Positions 16,101 through 30,676 of a stretch of 64,000 bases of DNA are shown here, in pieces. Below the pieces are notes generated by a model, which was given only the letters and a program-made list of their open reading frames with translations, did not search any database and was not told the DNA's origin. Origin of the DNA: Ignavibacteriota bacterium (GTDB lineage: Bacteria > Bacteroidota > Ignavibacteria > UBA10030 > UBA6906); NCBI GenBank assembly GCA_016218065.1, contig JACRFA010000003.1:10090-74089 (forward strand), in the 5' to 3' direction. The translations under genes were made by a program, and so were the position numbers. Each line of letters opens with the position of its first letter. Within the stretch, counting starts at the first letter, position 1.

Positions 16101-16311
16101 CGGATTCGAATGCAAGGAAAGGAGGCTGTTGCTTCGCGTAAAGGATGACGGCGTAATTCGGCAGGATCGGAAGGCGGATGAGTTTTCCGGCAGAGGATTG
16201 GCGAACATGGAGCGACGTGCACACGAGTTGAACGGGCGCTTCACCTTCTCACAATCTGAAGGAACGACGGTGGAGATCGAAATCCCGTTGGATGGAGAAT
16301 ACCCCAAGTGA
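13186..16311 (+). CDS. Sensor histidine kinase: two-component-regulator propeller repeats, Y_Y_Y domain, TM segment, HisKA_3 and HATPase_c
   Basis: Repeated ..LW[IV][GT]T..G[LV]N.[FY]D motifs (Reg_prop type). Y_Y_Y region is YAYMLEGFDHDW...YTNLDPGKYTL. TM segment WFKLIVGVLIVGTF. ERERISRDLHDNVGAQL (HisKA_3). ATPase region NALKHA...DDG...GRGLANM. The TTG at 13186 follows GGGGGAG; the ORF track begins at TTG 13123. Confidence 0.9.
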   Translation: MNIHRIRFALPGLALLACLPCASLSQHFSFPIEHIDTENGLSHNTVSCITQDSRGFIWIGTIDGLNRFDGYTCRVFKHDPLNPHSLSSSFIHNISEDRNGTLWVTTRDGGVNRFDYRAETFSSFQNNPADTTTIGGNKAGAVFQDSRGILWVTTDAGLHRFDHAAGTFTRFSHNPDDASSLSNDQVTGIAEDPDGTLWIATDDGLNKFDPRRGKVVLTFRSRSDDRSLSDNRLVGVLLARNGMLWVGTRGNGVNMLDRTSGTFKRFTPDANNPRKPSSEYVAPMVEDERGNIWCATHDGVNVYELATGIFHRLPHVPNSTTSISHSIISSILLDTVGDVWIGTWGGGVNKLGRRLQKFSAISSRTAPGVLLNDFVLAMMVDHEGALWVGTGDGLSRNVARSGQSAAPSQHLLRKMSVWCLMQNADSTIWAGTGDRGIATFTANGLPLRQFVLGDSLAIADNTIRALFRDRRGVIWAGTQAHGVNSYDAATRRWTHYPFGKTDGTSVSDELVWAINEDHDGHLWFGTYLGGLNEYDPTSKTFSYYQHRANDSTSLGANDVRTICVTRAGELWIGTYGGGICLLNKATGRFTRVTERDGLANNFVYGILEDDDANLWISTNKGVSRYNPAARIFRNYTARDGLQSDEFNTGAYFRDSTGELFFGGVGGLNRFFPHEVYENKHVPPIVLTSFKIVDRELTGKSLSLLDSVQLDYSDGFFSFEFAALDYVDPLRNQYAYMLEGFDHDWIYSGARRYVSYTNLDPGKYTLRMKGSNSDGVWNEQGKSVLVTIVPPFWMTAWFKLIVGVLIVGTFAGTVRFISTRKLKEQLRTLEKQRALQEERERISRDLHDNVGAQLSTIITGLELAEKYEQKTDHARSENLLVNLKDDARLTMAQLRETIWALSSSSMSLVEFFESIEAYGKKQVQHRISPKIWFLCEGKADVTLSSIQVLHLFRIAQEALTNALKHADAQNIHIGFECKERRLLLRVKDDGVIRQDRKADEFSGRGLANMERRAHELNGRFTFSQSEGTTVEIEIPLDGEYPK

Positions 16312-16343
16312 TGTATTGCGCAGCGGAGAACTTCACGTATATT
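16300..16343 (+). promoter_or_regulatory. 7-2-7 inverted-heptamer box directly abutting a putative promoter (site s1), upstream of the regulator gene
   Basis: TACCCCA-AG-TGATGTA (16300-16315), then TTGCGC (16316-16321), a 16-nt spacer, then TATATT (16338-16343). Sites s2-s4 have the same architecture. Confidence 0.5.
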
Positions 16344-16381: not shown

Positions 16382-17077
16382 ATGGACGCTTCTTCTGACC
16401 AGAAAATCCGTATCGCCCTCGTTGAAGACAATGCAACGCTGCGGAAGCGATTCGAGGAGTACTTTTCGTTGTATGAGAGGATTGAGCTTGTTGCTTCGTA
16501 TGCATCCGGTGAAGCAGCGCTCAACAGCATCAAGAAGATGCAGCCGAGCCGCCTGCCGCACATCGTGTTGATGGATATTGAGCTTCCGAATATCTCCGGC
16601 ATCGAAACGACGCAGAAGTTGAAAGAGGAGTTCCCCGACATTGAGGTCATGATGCTGACGGTGTTTGAGGATCAGAACAAGATTCTGCAATCGATACAGG
16701 CCGGAGCGTCGGGGTATTTACTGAAGGATGAATCACCGGACAGCATCGTTGAGGCGTTGGAAGAATGCCTGCGCGGCGGCGCACCGATTTCGCAATCGCT
16801 TGCAAGAAAAGTTCTCGGTATGTTGCGCGCGCCATCGGCCGGCTCATCGGCAGCCACAATGACAAGCAGCGCCAATGAGGACTCATTTGACCTGAGCGAT
16901 CGTGAAATTGAATTGCTTCAGGGCCTGGTACAAGGAGAAGTCTATACAACGCTCGCCGCGAAATTCTTCATCAGTCCACACACCGTTCGCACGCACATCC
17001 GCAATATCTACAAGAAGCTTCAGGTACACAACCGCGCCCACGCCGTCCGCATCGCGATAGAGAAGAAGCTGGTGTAA
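16382..17077 (+). CDS. NarL/LuxR-family response regulator (REC plus HTH_LuxR)
   Basis: MDASSDQKIRIALVEDN...VLMDIELPNISG...LTVFED...GYLLKD, with C-terminal LSDREIELLQGLVQGEVYTTLAAKFFISPHTVRTHIRNIYKKLQV. ATG at 16382 is preferred over the ORF-track start at 16292. Confidence 0.9.
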   Translation: MDASSDQKIRIALVEDNATLRKRFEEYFSLYERIELVASYASGEAALNSIKKMQPSRLPHIVLMDIELPNISGIETTQKLKEEFPDIEVMMLTVFEDQNKILQSIQAGASGYLLKDESPDSIVEALEECLRGGAPISQSLARKVLGMLRAPSAGSSAATMTSSANEDSFDLSDREIELLQGLVQGEVYTTLAAKFFISPHTVRTHIRNIYKKLQVHNRAHAVRIAIEKKLV

Positions 17078-17092
17078 CCTCGCGATCCAGAA

Positions 17093-17136
17093 TACCTCAT
17101 CTGGACTATTGCCCGCCGAATAGCTCTCAGTATATT
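17093..17136 (+). promoter_or_regulatory. 7-2-7 box directly abutting a putative promoter (site s4), upstream of the cargo gene
   Basis: TACCTCA-TC-TGGACTA (17093-17108), then TTGCCC (17109-17114), a 16-nt spacer, then TATATT (17131-17136). The box ends 83 nt before the ATG at 17191. Confidence 0.55.
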
Positions 17137-17190
17137 TCTTCAGAACACACACCAATCTTTCTTCCATCCAACAAAAAAGGGGGAGCCTTT

Positions 17191-18462
17191 ATGCGACGTA
17201 TGATATTCTTTGCGCTGTCGATTTCTTTGATTTGCCAATTTGCTTGGGCGCAATGGCAACGCGTCACCAACGTGAACGCGGGTGCGACCGGCAGAGTTGC
17301 TTCTCACGGCAGCGCGGTGTTTCTCTACGGCTATGAAGGGGGATACAAACTCCATCGTTCCACGGATAATGGAACAACGTGGGTCGATATTTCTTCCAGT
17401 GCGACCGCGGCGTTTGTCGACATCTTCAGCTTCAACGGCATGTTGTACGCTTCTTATCTTAGCACCGTCTATACATCCACCGATCTCGGTCAAAGTTGGA
17501 CGCCGCTTTCGGGTGTTACTGTAACTGGCACCGGGGCGCTTCTCGGCTTTGCATCGGACGGAACGACGTTGTATGCATTCTCGAATCGCAAATCCGTTTT
17601 CAGATCCACGAACAACGGCGCGTCGTGGACGGAATTGCTCATCAATAGCACGGCAAACCTGCTCATTATTGATTTCGCTGCGCGCGGGAATCGCTACGCG
17701 GCAGTTGTTGCAAACGCAGGCGCTTATATCTCCGAAGACGCGGGCGCAACGTGGACACTCCGCAATCCGACAGTAGGTGCGGGCGGCATCTATGGTTTCA
17801 ACAATACTCTCTTCGGCCTCTCGTTTGGCGGCGGAGTGTTCACGATGCAAAACGGAAGTTCGAGTTGGATTGCTGCGAATAGCGGTGTGCCCAGCAACGG
17901 GTCGTTAGTCGTTCCGAGGGCGCCCGCGTCGCAGGGAAGCGCGATCTACTTGGGGTTTCAACAACTTGTTTCGAATTACGGCAGCGTTGTGAGATCAACC
18001 GACGGCGGCGCCTCGTGGACAGAGCTTGACACGGCCGGACTTCCTACGTCGGTTATTCCCGGAGTAGGGGGTACGCGCTATGTTGCAGCCACACCCACAC
18101 ACGTTTACTATTTCTACTACGGTGGTGCAACTCAAGTTGGCGTGTACAGGACGGCCGGTTTGCCGAGCGCAGTGCGCGAGGTTGCATCGGAAATTCCCAA
18201 TGGGTTTTCACTCGAACAGAATTATCCGAATCCGTTTAATCCGTCCACGCGCATCGCTTTCGCGGTTCAGGTTTCAGGGTTCACGTCCCTCAGGGTGTAC
18301 GATGTGTTGGGAAAGGAAGTGGCAACGTTGGTGAATGAGAACTTGAACGCGGGAAGTTACGAGACGACGTTTGATGCGTCCGGTTTGGCAAGCGGTGTGT
18401 ACTTCTATCGTCTGGAGGCTGGAGCGTTTTCACTGACCAAGCGGTTGATGTTGTTGCGTTGA
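17191..18462 (+). CDS. T9SS cargo, Asp-box/BNR-like beta-propeller (~420 aa)
   Basis: GGGGGAG Shine-Dalgarno site and a signal peptide ending AWAQ. Asp-box motifs STDNGTTW, STDLGQSW, STNNGASW, SEDAGATW, STDGGASW. CTD is NYPNPFNPSTRIAF...YRLEAGAFSLTKRLMLLR. Confidence 0.85.
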   Translation: MRRMIFFALSISLICQFAWAQWQRVTNVNAGATGRVASHGSAVFLYGYEGGYKLHRSTDNGTTWVDISSSATAAFVDIFSFNGMLYASYLSTVYTSTDLGQSWTPLSGVTVTGTGALLGFASDGTTLYAFSNRKSVFRSTNNGASWTELLINSTANLLIIDFAARGNRYAAVVANAGAYISEDAGATWTLRNPTVGAGGIYGFNNTLFGLSFGGGVFTMQNGSSSWIAANSGVPSNGSLVVPRAPASQGSAIYLGFQQLVSNYGSVVRSTDGGASWTELDTAGLPTSVIPGVGGTRYVAATPTHVYYFYYGGATQVGVYRTAGLPSAVREVASEIPNGFSLEQNYPNPFNPSTRIAFAVQVSGFTSLRVYDVLGKEVATLVNENLNAGSYETTFDASGLASGVYFYRLEAGAFSLTKRLMLLR

Positions 18463-25043: not shown

Positions 25044-25318
25044 TCTTGGTGCGCGCGATTTCTTTCTCATGAAGTGACCTCACAAGTTCGATCCTCAATC
25101 AGGGTGAGTCAAGAAAGACTCTCCCCCTTTTTGTTGTTGTATTGCCTCCCTCGGGCCACCACGGCAGGGAATAGTTGAACGAGCGCAAGAAGACGTTGAT
25201 CCGCCTTCAACGCTTTCAAAGGGATCCAGTTGCATTTCTAACGACTTAACAACTAATTGTGTAAGACTATTCCTCTCTTTAGCACTCTCATCAGAGACGC
25301 GAAACGAAAACCTCATTC

Positions 25319-28300
25319 ATGGTTCAAAGAATTTTCCGACTCGTCGCCGTAAGCATCTTACTTACGCTGGATTTGAGCGCCCAAACCCGGCAAATCATAT
25401 TCGACTCCTTTGGCATTGAGCATGGATTATCGGAAGGCATCGTCCTTTCGGTTGTGCAGGATCGGCGAGGATTTTTGTGGTTCGCTACCGCCGATGGACT
25501 GAATCGTTTTGACGGATATTCATTCACGACATTTCGTACGAGTGCCCGCGACTCGTTCACCATCTCATCGAACTATGTCAACACGGTGTATGAAGATCGC
25601 AACGGGAATCTCTGGATTGGCTCGACCGGAGGTCTTGATGTTTTTGATCCGAAGACTGAACGATTTCATCGATACAATTTTTCTCCCCTCAAGAGTCCCA
25701 AGGGAAATTCGTTTTCCGTGATTCCCATATTTGAAGATTCCGATGGCGCAATTTGGATCGGAATTCTTGGAGGAGGTTTGACGAAATTGGTTCTTGGAAC
25801 GGAACACACATTCCCTCCGGAAATTGATCGCATCGAATCCTTTACGTACAAACCCGAAGACCCAATGAGTATCAGCAATAATCAAGTCTCTTCAATCGGC
25901 GAAGATGACAAGGGAAATCTTTGGGTTGGAACGTGGGAGGGTGGACTGAACATGTTGAACCGGACATCGAAGGCGTTCATGCATTTCCGTCACGAGAAAA
26001 ATAATTTAAACAGCCTCAGTCATGATTTCGTGCGCGTTGTGTATGCCGATGTCCATGGTGCGCTGTGGGTCGGAACGGAAGGAGGAGGACTCGACCGAAT
26101 TGCGAATCGCAAAGAAACCGGCAGACCAACGTTCACTCACTATCGGAATGAACAGAAAAAAGAGGGAACCCTTTCACACAATGTTGTCCGCGCGATTCAT
26201 GAGGACAAGCACGGGAATCTCTGGATAGGAACAGATGGCGGCGGAATTGATCTGTATGATCGCTCAAAGGATTCATTTGTCAATTTCCGGCGCGACGCGG
26301 CTTCCGCCGCAAGCATCGCCAGCAATCGCGTTGTCAGCATTTACGAAGATCCTTCGGGGTCGCTCTGGTTCGGGACGTGGGGGAATGGCGTCAGCCGGTT
26401 TTCTCCTGCGGCGGCCAAGTTCCGCAATGACGAAAATTTCGATGCCATGCTCACGCGGCTTACAAGCAGGTTCATACTTGCGCTCTACGAAGACTCACGC
26501 CATCGACTCTGGATTGGAACTCATGGAGGCGGGTTGAACATGTACGACGCAGCAACAAACAGCGTAACGCAGTACGTTCATGAACTGAAGAATCAACGAA
26601 GTCTGATCAACAATGTCGTTTGGAGCATCACGGAGGACAAGCGCGGCGACATTTGGATGACAACCGATCAGGGAGTTGAGCGGCTCTCGGTGCGTGATGG
26701 AACATTCTCTCACTTCCAACACAACCCCATAGACAGCAGCAGTCTGAGCGACAACTTTGTGAGCCGTATTCTTGCCGACCGTTCCGGCTTGATCTGGATT
26801 CTTGCACCGAATGCAGTAAACAAACTTGACCCTTCAACAGGAAGAGTTACTCGCTATCCGTTGATGACTTCCGACGGCGATTTACTCCCGAGCAACACCG
26901 TAAGCGCGTTGTATGAAGATCGCGCAGGCGAGTTGTGGCTCGGCATCGGCGGGCTTGCGCGTTTCGACATGGAAACCAGACGGATGATTCACTACAAACA
27001 CTCGTCAAGCGATTCACAAAGCATGAACGTTACGGTGAGCAGCATACTGCAAGACCGAAACGGTGCAATGTGGGTCTCGACATTTGGCTCCGGCGTGTAT
27101 TCGTATGATACAACGGGTGGGCAATCCGCACATTACTCCGAGAAGGAGGGTTTACCCAACGATGTTGTGTACGGGATACTCGAAGATGCGCGCGGCTTCC
27201 TGTGGATGAGCACCAACCGCGGGTTATCGAAATTTGATCCGGTTGCGAAGACATTTAAGAACTATGATGTTCACGACGGCTTGCAAAGCAACGAGTTTAA
27301 CCGCGGCGCTTACCTTGCGCTGAGCGATGGTCGGATGATGTTTGGAGGCATTAACGGAATCAATCGCTTCTTCCCCGACAGCATCCGCGACAACACACAC
27401 ATTCCGCCGGTTGTGCTCACGTCCTTCAAGAAGTTTGATGAAGTTGTGCAATTCGATTCCGCGATCTCAGCCATTCGGGCAATTGTTCTGAACTACAAAG
27501 AGAATTTCTTCTCGTTTGAATTTGCCTCGCTCGATTACGCAGAGCCGTCCAAGAACCTCTACATGTATATGCTTGATGGATTGGAACAATCGTGGTCGAA
27601 ACCGGGCACACGCAGAAGCGCGCGCTATACGAACGTCGATCCTGGCGAGTACGTCTTTCGTGTCCGCGGTTCAAACAACGATGGCACGTGGAATACCGAA
27701 GGGATCGCTGTGCGCGTCACGATCACGCCTCCGTTTTGGAGAACGTGGTGGTTTAGCGCTGCATCTGTTTTTGCCATTGCGGGAGTCTTTGGCGGTTCGA
27801 TACGCTACATTTCAACGCGTAAATTGAAAAGGCAATTGGAGGAACTGGAGCGCGAGCGCGCATTGCAACAGGAACGCGAACGCATATCGCGCGATTTGCA
27901 CGATCATGTTGGCGCTCAGCTTGTTAATATCATTTCCGGGTTGGATTTGGTAGGAAAGTATTCTCCGCCAACCGAGACGCGGGCGCAGCGTCTGCTTCAA
28001 TCACTGCAGCACGACGCGCGATCCAGCATTCTCCAACTTCGCGAAACTATCTGGGCAATCAAGACAAAAGCCATGACACTCGATGCGTTTGCCCAGCAGG
28101 TCGAAAACTATTCGCGCAAACAAATGGAATTCCAAACGGATGTTCAGCTTCATTTTGAATCGGACAGGTCCGTGTCGGTTGAATTGACGCCGGTTCAAGT
28201 GCTGAATTGCTTTCGCATAATCCAGGAAGCGTTGACGAATTGCGCCAAGCATGCCAATGCAGAAAATATTTGGGTGAAGCTTCGATGGGTGGAGAGCGGG

Positions 28301-28486
28301 AAACTTGTCGTGATTGTAAAGGATGATGGTGTTGGAGTGCATAAAACCGCGAATGAAGATCGCGTAGGCAATGGCCTTCTCAATATGAAACGACGAGCCG
28401 ACGAACTTGGCGGCACATTGCATTGGGAACCCACAGTCGGCACGGGAATGATCCTCAAGGTTGAGATTCCGATCGCAAAACCATAA
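25319..28486 (+). CDS. Sensor histidine kinase, paralogue of 13186-16311 (Reg_prop repeats, Y_Y_Y, TM, HisKA_3, HATPase_c)
   Basis: Same architecture as the first kinase. Contains GFLWFATADGLNRFDG and similar repeats, YMYMLDGLEQSW...YTNVDPGEYVF, ERERISRDLHDHVGAQL and NCAKHA...DDGVG...GNGLLNM. Confidence 0.9.
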   Translation: MVQRIFRLVAVSILLTLDLSAQTRQIIFDSFGIEHGLSEGIVLSVVQDRRGFLWFATADGLNRFDGYSFTTFRTSARDSFTISSNYVNTVYEDRNGNLWIGSTGGLDVFDPKTERFHRYNFSPLKSPKGNSFSVIPIFEDSDGAIWIGILGGGLTKLVLGTEHTFPPEIDRIESFTYKPEDPMSISNNQVSSIGEDDKGNLWVGTWEGGLNMLNRTSKAFMHFRHEKNNLNSLSHDFVRVVYADVHGALWVGTEGGGLDRIANRKETGRPTFTHYRNEQKKEGTLSHNVVRAIHEDKHGNLWIGTDGGGIDLYDRSKDSFVNFRRDAASAASIASNRVVSIYEDPSGSLWFGTWGNGVSRFSPAAAKFRNDENFDAMLTRLTSRFILALYEDSRHRLWIGTHGGGLNMYDAATNSVTQYVHELKNQRSLINNVVWSITEDKRGDIWMTTDQGVERLSVRDGTFSHFQHNPIDSSSLSDNFVSRILADRSGLIWILAPNAVNKLDPSTGRVTRYPLMTSDGDLLPSNTVSALYEDRAGELWLGIGGLARFDMETRRMIHYKHSSSDSQSMNVTVSSILQDRNGAMWVSTFGSGVYSYDTTGGQSAHYSEKEGLPNDVVYGILEDARGFLWMSTNRGLSKFDPVAKTFKNYDVHDGLQSNEFNRGAYLALSDGRMMFGGINGINRFFPDSIRDNTHIPPVVLTSFKKFDEVVQFDSAISAIRAIVLNYKENFFSFEFASLDYAEPSKNLYMYMLDGLEQSWSKPGTRRSARYTNVDPGEYVFRVRGSNNDGTWNTEGIAVRVTITPPFWRTWWFSAASVFAIAGVFGGSIRYISTRKLKRQLEELERERALQQERERISRDLHDHVGAQLVNIISGLDLVGKYSPPTETRAQRLLQSLQHDARSSILQLRETIWAIKTKAMTLDAFAQQVENYSRKQMEFQTDVQLHFESDRSVSVELTPVQVLNCFRIIQEALTNCAKHANAENIWVKLRWVESGKLVVIVKDDGVGVHKTANEDRVGNGLLNMKRRADELGGTLHWEPTVGTGMILKVEIPIAKP

Positions 28487-28530
28487 TACCTCCTTTGGGG
28501 TATTGTGAACTACACGGCATTCCGTACTTT
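28487..28530 (+). promoter_or_regulatory. 7-2-7 box directly abutting a putative promoter (site s2), upstream of the regulator gene
   Basis: TACCTCC-TT-TGGGGTA (28487-28502) begins 1 nt after the kinase stop codon. It is followed by TTGTGA (28503-28508), a 16-nt spacer and TACTTT (28525-28530). The ATG lies at 28537. Confidence 0.55.
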
Positions 28531-28536
28531 CTTACT

Positions 28537-29220
28537 ATGACACCAATCAAAGTTGCCTGCGTCGAAGACAATACCTCGCTGCGAAAACGGTTCGAAGAAC
28601 AATTTGAATTCTTCGATGACATTCAGCTTGTTGCGACATTTGCAACGGGCGAGGCCGCGCTCAATGCGCTCCGAAAATCCGCTCCGAGCAAACTTCCGGA
28701 TATTGTTCTGATGGATATCGAACTGCCCGGCATGTCGGGCATCGACACAACCATTGCAATCAAAGAACTGTTTCCGGACATCGATGTCATGATGTTTACT
28801 GTTTTTGAGGATGAACTAAAAATCTTTCACGCCATTCAGGCCGGCGCCGCGGGCTATCTGCTGAAAGATGATCCGATTGAAGATGTTGCGCAAGCAATTC
28901 GCGAACTCCACGCCGGCGGCGCGCCGATGTCGCAATCAATCGCGCGTACGGTTCTGTCATTTCTGCGGACAAGGAATAACATGTCCGGAAAGGATTCGTT
29001 GATCGGGTCGGTTCACGAACCCGTTGAGTTCGACCTTTCGGTTCGTGAACTTGAATTGCTGCAAGGATTGGTGCAGGGAGAAACGTATCAGACTCTTGCA
29101 AAGAAACTCTTCATCTCCCCGCACACCGTAAAGACGCATATCAAAAACATCTACAAGAAACTTCACGTTCACTCGCGGGCGCTTGCTGTTCGTGTTGCGT
29201 TGGATAGAGGCTTGGTGTAG
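28537..29220 (+). CDS. NarL/LuxR-family response regulator, paralogue of 16382-17077
   Basis: MTPIKVACVEDN...VLMDIELPGMSG...FTVFED...GYLLKD, with C-terminal LSVRELELLQGLVQGETYQTLAKKLFISPHTVKTHIKNIYKKLHV. Confidence 0.9.
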   Translation: MTPIKVACVEDNTSLRKRFEEQFEFFDDIQLVATFATGEAALNALRKSAPSKLPDIVLMDIELPGMSGIDTTIAIKELFPDIDVMMFTVFEDELKIFHAIQAGAAGYLLKDDPIEDVAQAIRELHAGGAPMSQSIARTVLSFLRTRNNMSGKDSLIGSVHEPVEFDLSVRELELLQGLVQGETYQTLAKKLFISPHTVKTHIKNIYKKLHVHSRALAVRVALDRGLV

Positions 29221-29250
29221 CAGTTCCAAAATTATTTCGGTCACATTCAA

Positions 29251-29297
29251 ATCCTGTTCTCACATTCAATAACGTGAGAACAGGATTTTTTGTTTTT
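29251..29297 (+). terminator. Rho-independent terminator
   Basis: ATCCTGTTCTCAC (29251-29263), a 10-nt loop, GTGAGAACAGGAT (29274-29286), then TTTTTTGTTTTT. Confidence 0.8.
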
Positions 29298-29313
29298 GTG
29301 AGTGATGCTAAAT

Positions 29314-29357
29314 TACCCCCAATGGGGTATTGAGCGGACTTTCGGTAATCCTATTTT
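29314..29357 (+). promoter_or_regulatory. 7-2-7 box directly abutting a putative promoter (site s3), upstream of the cargo gene
   Basis: TACCCCC-AA-TGGGGTA (29314-29329), then TTGAGC (29330-29335), a 16-nt spacer, then TATTTT (29352-29357). The box ends 82 nt before the ATG at 29411. Confidence 0.6.
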
Positions 29358-29410
29358 GAGACAAGACAATTCGAATTCACATTTCTCCAACACCAAAACA
29401 GAGGTTACCC

Positions 29411-30676
29411 ATGAAGAGAACACTTACCGCACTGACACTGAGCGCTATGCTTGTTATACAATCGTCCGCCCAATGGGTGGCAACAAACGGGCCGTTCGGT
29501 GGAGCTGTCCGCAAACTTGCTGTCATTGGAACAAATCTCTTCGCTGCAACGGACAACGTCGGCGTTTCTCTCTCGACCAACAATGGCACAAGTTGGACAG
29601 TGGTCAACACAGGTCTGCCGGCGAATCCTCTTGTCCATACTCTTGTGGCCAGTGGTACGAATCTCTTCGCATCGGTTTCAGCACGCGGGGTGTATCACTC
29701 CACCGACAGTGGCACAAGTTGGACTGCAATCAATAACGGCTTGACGAACACGAATGTGATGGCTCTCGCGGTAAGCGGCACGAATCTCTTTGTTGCAACT
29801 ATGGGCGGCGTTTTTCGTTCGACCGACAACGGCGCAAACTGGACATTGGGCAGCACTGACTTAACAGGCACAAGTGTTCCGTCACTTGCCATCAGCGGCT
29901 CGAATGTCTTTGCAGGAACGGATGGACGCGGCGTCTTTCTCTCGACCAACAACGGCGTTAACTGGGCAGCGGCAAACAACGGCTTTCCTTCTCCGGCAAC
30001 CACAACTGTGCATTCGCTTCTCGCGAGCGCCGAAAATGTTTTTGCAGGATATCACCGCGGCGTTGTTCTATCAACTAACAATGCCTCAACCTGGGCAGCG
30101 ACGAACACCGGCTTTCCGAATGCAACCATAAACGTCATGTCTCTTGTCGCCAGTGGTGGAAATCTCTTCGCTGCAACATCAGGCAGTGGCGTTTTTCGAT
30201 CAACCAACAACGGCGCAAGTTGGGCAACGTTCAACACCGGGTTGTTGAACACTACGGTGATGTCTCTTGCCGTTGTCGGTACGGAACTCTTCGCCGGAAC
30301 GTTTGGCAGCGGAGTGTGGAGACAAGCCATTCCGACCGGTGTAAAAGAAGTGAGTGGAACGAATCCTGAAACATTTTCGCTCGAACAAAACTATCCGAAT
30401 CCGTTTAACCCAAGTACAAGAATCAAATTCCGGATAGGAGATGTCGGAGGTCAGAGGCCCACACTGAGCGTAGCCGAAGGGTCGGAAGTCAGTCGCGTGA
30501 TGTTGAAGGTGTACGATGTATTGGGACGCGAAGTCGCGACGCTGGTGGATGAAGAATTGGAGGCGGGAAGCTACGAAGTGAATTTCGATGCACGCGATCT
30601 CGCGAGCGGCGTATATTTCTACCGAATGACCGTACACGGTTTTGCAGACACCAGAAGGCTTTTGCTTCTGCGCTAA
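29411..30676 (+). CDS. T9SS cargo, Asp-box/BNR-like beta-propeller (~420 aa), counterpart of 17191-18462
   Basis: Signal peptide ending SSAQW. About 47-aa repeats of the form G.NLFA.T...GVF.STNNG.SW...N.G. (STNNGTSW, STDSGTSW, STDNGANW, STNNGVNW, STNNASTW, STNNGASW). T9SS CTD present. Confidence 0.85.
   Translation: MKRTLTALTLSAMLVIQSSAQWVATNGPFGGAVRKLAVIGTNLFAATDNVGVSLSTNNGTSWTVVNTGLPANPLVHTLVASGTNLFASVSARGVYHSTDSGTSWTAINNGLTNTNVMALAVSGTNLFVATMGGVFRSTDNGANWTLGSTDLTGTSVPSLAISGSNVFAGTDGRGVFLSTNNGVNWAAANNGFPSPATTTVHSLLASAENVFAGYHRGVVLSTNNASTWAATNTGFPNATINVMSLVASGGNLFAATSGSGVFRSTNNGASWATFNTGLLNTTVMSLAVVGTELFAGTFGSGVWRQAIPTGVKEVSGTNPETFSLEQNYPNPFNPSTRIKFRIGDVGGQRPTLSVAEGSEVSRVMLKVYDVLGREVATLVDEELEAGSYEVNFDARDLASGVYFYRMTVHGFADTRRLLLLR

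Follow-up and report, generated by a model that had tools for sequence, protein, structure and literature searches.

Within a 64-kb stretch of the genome of an Ignavibacteriota bacterium (64,000 nt of contig JACRFA010000003.1, assembly GCA_016218065.1; "the window" below), two short palindromic boxes, s2 and s3, stand before the gene for a response regulator (regulator 2, RR2) and before the gene for the secreted "cargo" protein that follows it. Our analysis suggests, with a probability that we would put at roughly 0.65, that these boxes are operators of the regulator fused to core promoters of the housekeeping type, and that through them the regulator would activate both the cargo gene and its own message, the latter being leaderless or nearly so. 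The box sequences, their fixed geometry, their conservation and the way in which they co-vary with the regulator are all observed. The boxes belong to one of two paralogous three-gene modules, both on the plus strand of the window, to which Pfam assigns the same content: a kinase of about 1050 aa (Reg_prop propellers, Y_Y_Y domain, HisKA_3, HATPase_c), a REC-GerE (NarL/FixJ-type) response regulator, and a cargo protein of about 420 aa (a secreted BNR/Asp-box propeller with a type IX secretion sorting domain). The second module is laid out as follows.

25319-28486, plus strand: sensor histidine kinase 2, 1055 aa, with Reg_prop beta-propellers, Y_Y_Y, HisKA_3 and HATPase_c (Pfam).
28487-28502, no strand assigned: box s2, TACCTCCTTTGGGGTA, predicted operator of the REC-GerE regulator, centred at about -42.5 from the predicted start 28537 (direct reading, shuffles, weight matrix, orthologous boxes).
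28503-28508, plus strand: -35-like hexamer TTGTGA directly 3' of box s2 (nearly all orthologs of the Ignavibacteria type have a TTG after the box).
28525-28530, plus strand: -10-like hexamer TACTTT, 16 nt from the -35-like hexamer and followed by cttact and the ATG at 28537 (direct reading; fixed offset in relatives).
28537-29220, plus strand: response regulator 2 (RR2), 227 aa, REC plus GerE/LuxR helix-turn-helix (HTH) (Pfam).
29249-29297, plus strand: intrinsic terminator 3' of the regulator 2 gene, a 15-bp stem (29249-29288) and then the T-run TTTTTTGTTTTT to 29297 (-22.2 kcal/mol, z -5.35).
29314-29329, no strand assigned: box s3, TACCCCCAATGGGGTA, a perfect 6-4-6 palindrome and predicted operator of the cargo-2 promoter (direct reading, shuffles, weight matrix, cargo-side ortholog boxes).
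29330-29357, plus strand: cargo-2 core promoter, TTGAGC, 16 nt, TATTTT (29352-29357), with a predicted start near 29364 (direct reading, ortholog sites).
29411-30676, plus strand: cargo 2, a secreted BNR/Asp-box (sortilin-like) beta-propeller with a type IX secretion C-terminal sorting domain (Pfam).

The initial annotation of this DNA had placed both boxes at these coordinates as near-perfect 6-4-6 palindromes, and direct reading bears it out exactly: the half-sites of s2 (TACCTC and TACCCC) pair with one mismatch and those of s3 with none. Box s2 extends to a 20-mer palindrome, AATACCTCCTTTGGGGTATT (28485-28504), and the kinase 2 stop codon (TAA, 28484-28486) abuts the box and overlaps its extended form. 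Judged by its sequence, the box is better seen as a palindrome of 20 bp, AATACCYC-N4-GRGGTATT, belonging to the NarL 7-2-7 type, a register in which s3 is a perfect inverted repeat. Compared with the two inverted NarL heptamers (TACYYMT, 2 bp apart), positions 1-6 (TACCYC) match, whereas among 28 foreign sites position 7 carries only 0.58 bit and the AA/TT flanks 1.1-1.2 bit.

The pattern TACCNCNNNNGNGGTA, with up to one mismatch allowed, has three matches in the window against 0.45 expected, and none of 100 shuffles reached three. A weight matrix trained solely on the boxes of other genomes was then scanned over the whole 5.17-Mb assembly, with the reversed matrix as control; seven genome sites scored at least 23 bits, as against 17.7 bits for the best control match, and the four boxes of the window ranked 2nd, 4th, 7th and 9th genome-wide. 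The other high scorers in the same genome are C43:13645, C249:5715, C260:8779 and C58:6637. Two of the four window boxes belong to module 1, where the right halves are degenerate (GATGTA and GGACTA):

16300-16315, plus strand: box s1, TACCCCAAGTGATGTA, before regulator 1 and overlapping the kinase 1 stop codon (motif search).
16300-16343, plus strand: regulator 1 promoter, made up of box s1, TTGCGC, 16 nt and TATATT (16338-16343), with the regulator 1 ATG at 16382.
17093-17108, plus strand: box s1b, TACCTCATCTGGACTA, before cargo 1 (motif search).
17093-17136, plus strand: cargo 1 promoter, made up of box s1b, TTGCCC, 16 nt and TATATT (17131-17136), with the cargo 1 ATG at 17191.

Further support comes from relatives. 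Regulator loci were gathered from two sets, 339 genomes belonging to the same order and a species-level collection of genomes. The motif TACC-N8-GGTA stands before the regulator gene in all 11 order-level orthologs that have upstream sequence and in most of the more distant regulators, down to about 46% identity to RR2 (including Melioribacteraceae, Balneolaceae and an Imperialibacter genome), with the half-site TACCYC conserved across classes; below 46% identity, only one of some 55 loci has a box in that zone. Many orthologous loci carry a second copy behind the regulator and before a gene for a secreted protein. The palindromes are therefore kept in orthologous intergenic regions, the very place where the initial annotation had staked its case on their not being lost. 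We also considered whether the boxes might be functionless palindromes that arose by chance. The genome has just two perfect copies of TACCCC-N4-GGGGTA, and permuted half-sites give none or one, so that the raw counts are weak and too few to inform; position, orientation and sequence are nonetheless conserved over dozens of genomes, and by this comparison of orthologs an origin by chance is excluded.

Other pairs of propeller kinase and regulator in the same genome have a differing 6-4-6 palindrome of their own, which lies some 50 nt ahead of the regulator ATG, just behind the regulator, or at both places:

TGACGTGGATGCGTCA at -51, with TGACGTGGATACGTCA behind the gene.
TCACCCATATGGGTAA, with TTACCCATTTGGGTAA.
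TCACACGTTTGTGTTA at -50.
TAGCCCAAACGGGTCA at -50, with TGACTCAGATGAGTCA.

These paralog loci lie outside the window (C168:3439, C293:4529, C288:3851, C234:26154, C68:1701 and C1:27354), and examples of their half-sites are TGACGT-N4-GCGTCA, TCACCC-N4-GGGTAA, TCACAC-N4-GTGTTA, TGACTC-N4-GAGTCA, TACCAT-N4-ATGGTA and TCCCAT-N4-ATGGGA. The recognition helices differ among regulator paralogs that carry different palindromes. Of the arguments available, this co-variation of palindrome with regulator makes the best case for the boxes as operators of the regulators; s2 and s3 are very probably operators of the regulator beside them, and the whole looks like a family-wide layout with paralog-specific operators.

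The regulator itself is of the right kind. RR2 has both the receiver and the GerE HTH of NarL/FixJ (LuxR-type) regulators: an N-terminal receiver domain (Pfam Response_reg, E 2.3e-20), whose residues E10, D11, D60, T88 and K110 (acidic pocket, phospho-acceptor Asp, Thr and Lys) are invariant across three regulator paralogs, and a C-terminal four-helix GerE/LuxR HTH (Pfam GerE, E 1.6e-17). Its relatives with solved structures are ChrA, LiaR/VraR and NarL. When the alignment is extended by hand without gaps, the RR2 helix TVKTHIK falls on NarL TVKVHVK, with the equivalents of NarL Lys188 and Lys192 kept and Val189 replaced by Thr. Likeness of the recognition helix is a weak argument for specificity, since LiaR, VraR and ChrA share TVKTH yet bind other sites; of the helix residues, only the second lysine is specifically common to RR2 and NarL. 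In regulator 1 (16382-17077 of the window), Arg replaces Lys at both positions (TVRTHIR).

The sequence that follows the boxes has a fixed geometry. A TTG stands directly after the 16-mer in all four window boxes and at the C43 and C249 sites, and exactly 22 nt after the box come, in the same order, TATATT, TATATT, TACTTT, TATTTT, TAATAT and TAGATT, a TAnnTT series. Among distinct sites from related genomes, nAnnnT occurs at offset 38/39 from the start of the box in 39 of 47, as against about four at other offsets, and TAnnTT in 20 of 47, as against none to two elsewhere. Motifs of the form TTGnnn-N17-TA(T/C)(A/C)TT(G) also stand just upstream of 20 of the 43 tRNA genes of this genome. Examples of these tRNA promoters, in the forms TTGnnn-N17-TATATTG or TATCTTG, are found at C131:3665, C12:3204 and C225:1251, and the housekeeping consensus derived from them is intermediate between the sigma-70 -10 element and the Bacteroidetes TAnnTTTG -7 box. 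We take the hexamers next to the boxes to be the organism's own promoter elements. The coordinates of the -10 hexamer proposed in the initial annotation (28525-28530, ending 6 nt before the ATG at 28537) are right on direct reading, and the assignment gains support from the hexamer found 22-23 nt past the box in those 39 sites and from its match to the tRNA promoter hexamers.

If the T of the -10 element is numbered -12, the box occupies -50 to -35, has its centre at -42.5 and abuts the -35 element. A class II-like site is centred at about -41.5 to -43.5, where it abuts or overlaps a weak -35 element that goes with a recognisable -10 element, and the box falls in this range, at -42.5, if +1 is set 7 nt after the -10 element. 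The single NarL 7-2-7 site at yeaR of Escherichia coli has its centre at -43.5, immediately 5' of the -35 element, and acts by non-canonical class II activation (PMC10853779).

The same composite of box and promoter stands before cargo 2, past what is a strong intrinsic terminator (29249-29297); a scan against Rfam found no family at threshold, and its one weak match, below the gathering score, was the opposite strand of this terminator. The view of the initial annotation that cargo 2 has its own regulated promoter after the terminator is thus upheld, as a predicted promoter. Its predicted leader is about 47 nt long, with GAGG at 29401-29404 before the ATG at 29411. The near-equal distances from box to cargo ATG that had been taken as conserved are correct as numbers (29329 to 29411, 82 nt; 17108 to 17191, 83 nt); they are common to the closest relatives only, and among orthologs the cargo ATG lies anywhere from 81 to 211 nt past the start of the box, with predicted leaders mostly of 31-89 nt. 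No box was found upstream of the kinase 2 gene, so that any feedback through the boxes would leave the kinase out. A candidate kinase 2 promoter, TTGCAT-N18-TAATTG, lies at 25230-25259, about 60 nt before the kinase ATG.

The position of the -10 hexamer predicts that transcription of regulator 2 starts at 28537, that is, at the A of its ATG. The Bacteroidetes -7 box (TAnnTTTG) spans -12 to -5 (PMC9723704), and reckoning from this box gives the same +1. The start codon itself is secure: copies that are 78-80% identical (C43 in the same genome and L020 in a genome of the same genus) have an in-frame stop within the -10 hexamer, so that the aligned ATG is their only possible start. Among 49 distinct loci, eight have 50 nt from box start to regulator ATG, eight have 51, one has 52 and nine have 53, which together make 26, and all of these 26 start with ATG; the remainder lie at 55-99 nt, and none is reliably below 50 (two start calls are doubtful). 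Nine loci have the ATG exactly 12 nt past the start of the -10 element, both where that element stands at offset 38 and where it stands at 39; in 25 loci the figure is 11-15 nt. In other respects the stretch from box to ATG is not conserved, and the spacings pile up at the shortest distance that the predicted transcription start would allow. Together, the unconserved filler, the fixed 12-nt distance and the pile-up at the lower bound point to selection on spacing, as is to be expected of a leaderless gene; a box that acted on read-through alone would have no need of it.

Regulator and cargo genes also differ in how translation would begin: a GGAG-like motif lies 5-12 nt before the ATG in 15 of 16 cargo genes, and the regulator genes have none, nor room for one. 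Genome-wide, where TTGnnn-N16/17-TAnnTT precedes a long open reading frame (ORF), the gap between the end of the -10 element and the ATG has a bimodal distribution (one group of 24 cases at 5-9 nt, a dip over 10-22 nt and most cases at 23 nt or more), which implies that a leaderless class exists in this genome. The cases at 5-9 nt amount to some two dozen candidate leaderless genes, several other regulator paralogs among them. A profile of -10 elements before ORFs with an in-frame stop no more than 30 nt from their first ATG was set aside as uninformative for leaderless genes, being swamped by TAA/TAG stops with a 3-nt periodicity; the same profile has a Shine-Dalgarno-like peak at -10/-11, from which it follows that the organism uses Shine-Dalgarno motifs for some genes. 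In mapped Bacteroidetes such messages are scarce, 5' untranslated regions shorter than 10 nt making up 3.7% in B. thetaiotaomicron (PMC7366714) and leaderless mRNAs 5.5% in F. psychrophilum (PMC9723704), and a preference across a whole family is notable for that reason. Regulator 2 has an AUG start, no Shine-Dalgarno motif and a -10 element whose position relative to the start codon is conserved. Provided that the promoter is real, we consider it likely that the regulator 2 mRNA is leaderless or has a leader of at most 3 nt. The suggestion of the initial annotation to this effect is strengthened by the ATG spacing of 50-53 nt in 26 of the 49 loci, and it stays a prediction from sequence.

Several observations weigh against our reading. 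Many of the loci compared are phylogenetically related, so that the counts above are not independent events. The spacer is 16 nt at the box promoters and 17 nt in all 20 tRNA promoters. A generic sigma-70 consensus scan recovered only the module 1 cargo promoter (TTGCCC-16-TATATT) and called neither the s2 nor the s3 promoter; the -35-like hexamers are weak, and the promoters that were missed fell below the threshold of the scan on account of them. Moreover, a site that abuts the -35 element could repress instead of activate. The regulator might then bind the boxes as a repressor, the dimer at s2 occluding the promoter or blocking read-through from the kinase gene, and the regulator would be made only from a leadered bicistronic transcript. 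The abutting of box and -35-like hexamer at the junction of kinase and regulator, the lack of a promoter call at s2 and the absence of a terminator between the two genes would all suit such an arrangement. We nevertheless hold repression to be unlikely: a roadblock needs neither a -10-like hexamer fixed at 22-23 nt, present in 39 of 47 sites, nor an ATG fixed at 50-53 nt, and the same composite stands before the cargo genes, past a strong terminator, a place in which nothing but a promoter would make sense. Relative to the -35 element, the box also sits exactly where the activating NarL site of yeaR does. Weak -35 hexamers are in any case usual for activator-dependent promoters.

Other observations concern the start of the regulator message. 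In nine loci the ATG lies 3 nt further on (offset 53), so that "exactly leaderless" is not universal; the start in module 2 may itself lie 1-3 nt upstream of the A; and the ATG of regulator 1 is 82 nt from its box, which gives a predicted leader of about 32 nt. It could accordingly be that promoters and operators are real and the regulator 2 transcript starts several nucleotides upstream or elsewhere, with a short conventional leader, the spacing reflecting mere compaction of the gene junction. Those nine loci, others at offsets 55-57, a start-site choice that can vary by about 2 nt, and the small share of leaderless mRNAs (3.7-5.5%) in mapped Bacteroidetes all lean this way. Such a conventional leader seems improbable to us all the same, given that the lower bound of the spacing is the +1 predicted from the -10 element, that the 12-nt distance from -10 to ATG is kept when the -10 element moves by 1 nt, and that the regulator lacks the Shine-Dalgarno-like motif that the cargo genes have; a leader of 3 nt or less would be functionally near-leaderless anyway.

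Finally, box s2 folds as an 11-bp hairpin (-13.6 kcal/mol, z -3.8), which raises the question of whether the palindromes act in RNA, as a terminator, an attenuator or a stabiliser at the 3' end of the kinase mRNA, rather than as protein-binding DNA. A look-alike at C260:8779, which comes after the stop of a gene for an outer-membrane protein and directly before TTTTG, may indeed be a terminator. We rejected the hairpin or terminator reading of the boxes, and regard it as very improbable, because the module 1 boxes do not fold (s1, -2.9 kcal/mol, z +0.7) and the half-site sequence TACCYC is itself conserved across classes, and not just its pairing. There is, besides, no T-run after box s2, box s3 lies downstream of a real terminator, each regulator paralog has a palindrome of its own, and the Rfam scan gave no family at threshold.

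Our preferred reading, of operators fused to housekeeping-type promoters, would work as follows; here binding, activation over repression and the exact start of transcription are what we infer. The kinase gene probably has a promoter of its own, and read-through from it would supply a basal level of regulator. On receipt of a signal, the propeller/Y_Y_Y kinase would phosphorylate the regulator, and the phosphorylated dimer would bind s2 and s3 and recruit RNA polymerase in the fashion of NarL at yeaR. From s3 it would activate the cargo promoter, giving a message with a leader of about 47 nt and a Shine-Dalgarno-like motif; from s2 it would activate the internal promoter at the end of the kinase gene, so that the regulator is raised and the kinase is not. 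The message from the s2 promoter is predicted to begin with the A of the AUG, or no more than 3 nt away from that A.

Parts of this scheme are familiar from other bacteria. With NarL/NarP at 7-2-7 sites such as that of yeaR it shares the regulator family (REC plus GerE HTH), the register of the palindrome (TACCCC-N4-GGGGTA reads as TACCCCn-N2-nGGGGTA), a site placed directly against the -35 element, and the two lysines noted above. It differs in that heptamer position 7 is hardly conserved here whereas the AA/TT flanks are, in the Thr that takes the place of NarL Val189, and in a kinase with a periplasmic propeller/Y_Y_Y sensor in place of the nitrate sensor NarX. The targets here are secreted type IX proteins and the regulator gene itself, the phylum is another one, the core promoter is TTGnnn-N16/17-TAnnTT(G), and binding is a prediction from sequence.

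In Bacillus subtilis, degS and degU likewise form an operon of kinase then regulator with an internal promoter directly upstream of degU (PMC12826050), and phosphorylated DegU autoregulates degU (Ogura and Tsukahara, 2010, as cited in PMC12826050). In both systems a NarL-family regulator that follows its kinase is expressed by read-through and from an internal, positively autoregulated promoter (the autoregulation being predicted in our case), and feedback raises the regulator rather than the kinase; operator sequence and sensor type are different. To our knowledge, the degU message has not been described as leaderless.

Periplasmic Reg_prop propellers with Y_Y_Y are also found in the hybrid two-component glycan sensors of Bacteroides and in the one-component protein BguR (propeller, Y_Y_Y, transmembrane helix, GerE; bioRxiv 10.64898/2026.01.10.698779). 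BguR shares with our system the GerE output domain and a predicted operator in the intergenic region beside the regulated genes. Unlike either, the present system is a classical one of two proteins, a HisKA_3 kinase and a separate REC-GerE regulator, and its targets are single secreted proteins rather than polysaccharide utilisation loci. The regulator message resembles known leaderless mRNAs of Bacteroidetes in a -10/-7 box that starts 12 nt before the AUG, in lacking a Shine-Dalgarno motif and in its AUG start; it differs from them in being predicted, in being a conserved trait of one regulator family and in being tied to an activator site. All of the parts (operator, class II-like activation, internal autoregulated promoter, leaderless mRNA) are thus of known kinds, and a new mechanism need not be invoked, though the system as a whole is uncharacterised.

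Beyond the window, the box at C43:13645 precedes a third regulator (RR3), 80% identical to RR2, at a distance from box to ATG that is again 50 nt (TAATAT, 6 nt, ATG). In this third module (C43:13645-14384, compared with 28487-29220 of the window), the last 34 residues of the regulator, covering the DNA-binding and dimerisation helices, are identical to those of RR2, and the kinase is only about 32% identical. Because they share these 34 residues, RR2 and RR3 should read the same operators, and two different sensors probably converge on one operator set. An orphan box-promoter lies on the minus strand at C249:5697-5715, with 22 nt identical to s2 (TACCTCCTTTGGGGTATTGTGA) and TAGATT 22 nt on. 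It is upstream of a gene for a 258-aa lipoprotein and one for a 758-aa PQQ-like propeller, and is likely an additional target of regulators 2 and 3. The look-alike at C260:8779-8794, a perfect palindrome (TACCCCAAACGGGGTA), lies 5 nt past the stop of an outer-membrane beta-barrel gene and lacks a -10 element at the customary spacing. The site is probably a terminator hairpin with no more than a likeness to the box, and it cautions against predicting a regulon from the motif alone.

Propeller/Y_Y_Y kinases and NarL-type regulators are abundant yet unstudied in Ignavibacteria and the Bacteroidota group, and the boxes provide a first circuit among them that can be tested. They give a sequence handle on regulons, here of secreted type IX proteins with one target elsewhere in the genome, and a geometry exact to the base pair from which promoter and transcription start may be predicted. 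The conserved spacing of 50-53 nt makes a strong comparative case for leaderless or near-leaderless translation of a regulator, where such messages are some 4-5% of the total, and the paralog-specific palindromes in identical geometry would be useful for the study of GerE-HTH specificity and for orthogonal switches.

More tentatively, and with rather more doubt than confidence, the order kinase, box-promoter, leaderless regulator, box and cargo may be the ancestral design of an unstudied propeller/Y_Y_Y two-component family of Ignavibacteria, Balneolales and others of the Bacteroidota group, with at least 10 paralogs per genome, each having its own 6-4-6 palindrome and keeping the geometry to the base pair. 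If that were so, these genomes would hold a natural set of mutually insulated pairs of regulator and operator that would allow a GerE-HTH recognition code to be worked out. Only the regulator would be subject to feedback, by way of a leaderless message whose route of initiation differs from that of the read-through transcript, and RR2 and RR3, with identical DNA-binding helices and kinases that are 32% identical, would merge two signals on one set of operators.

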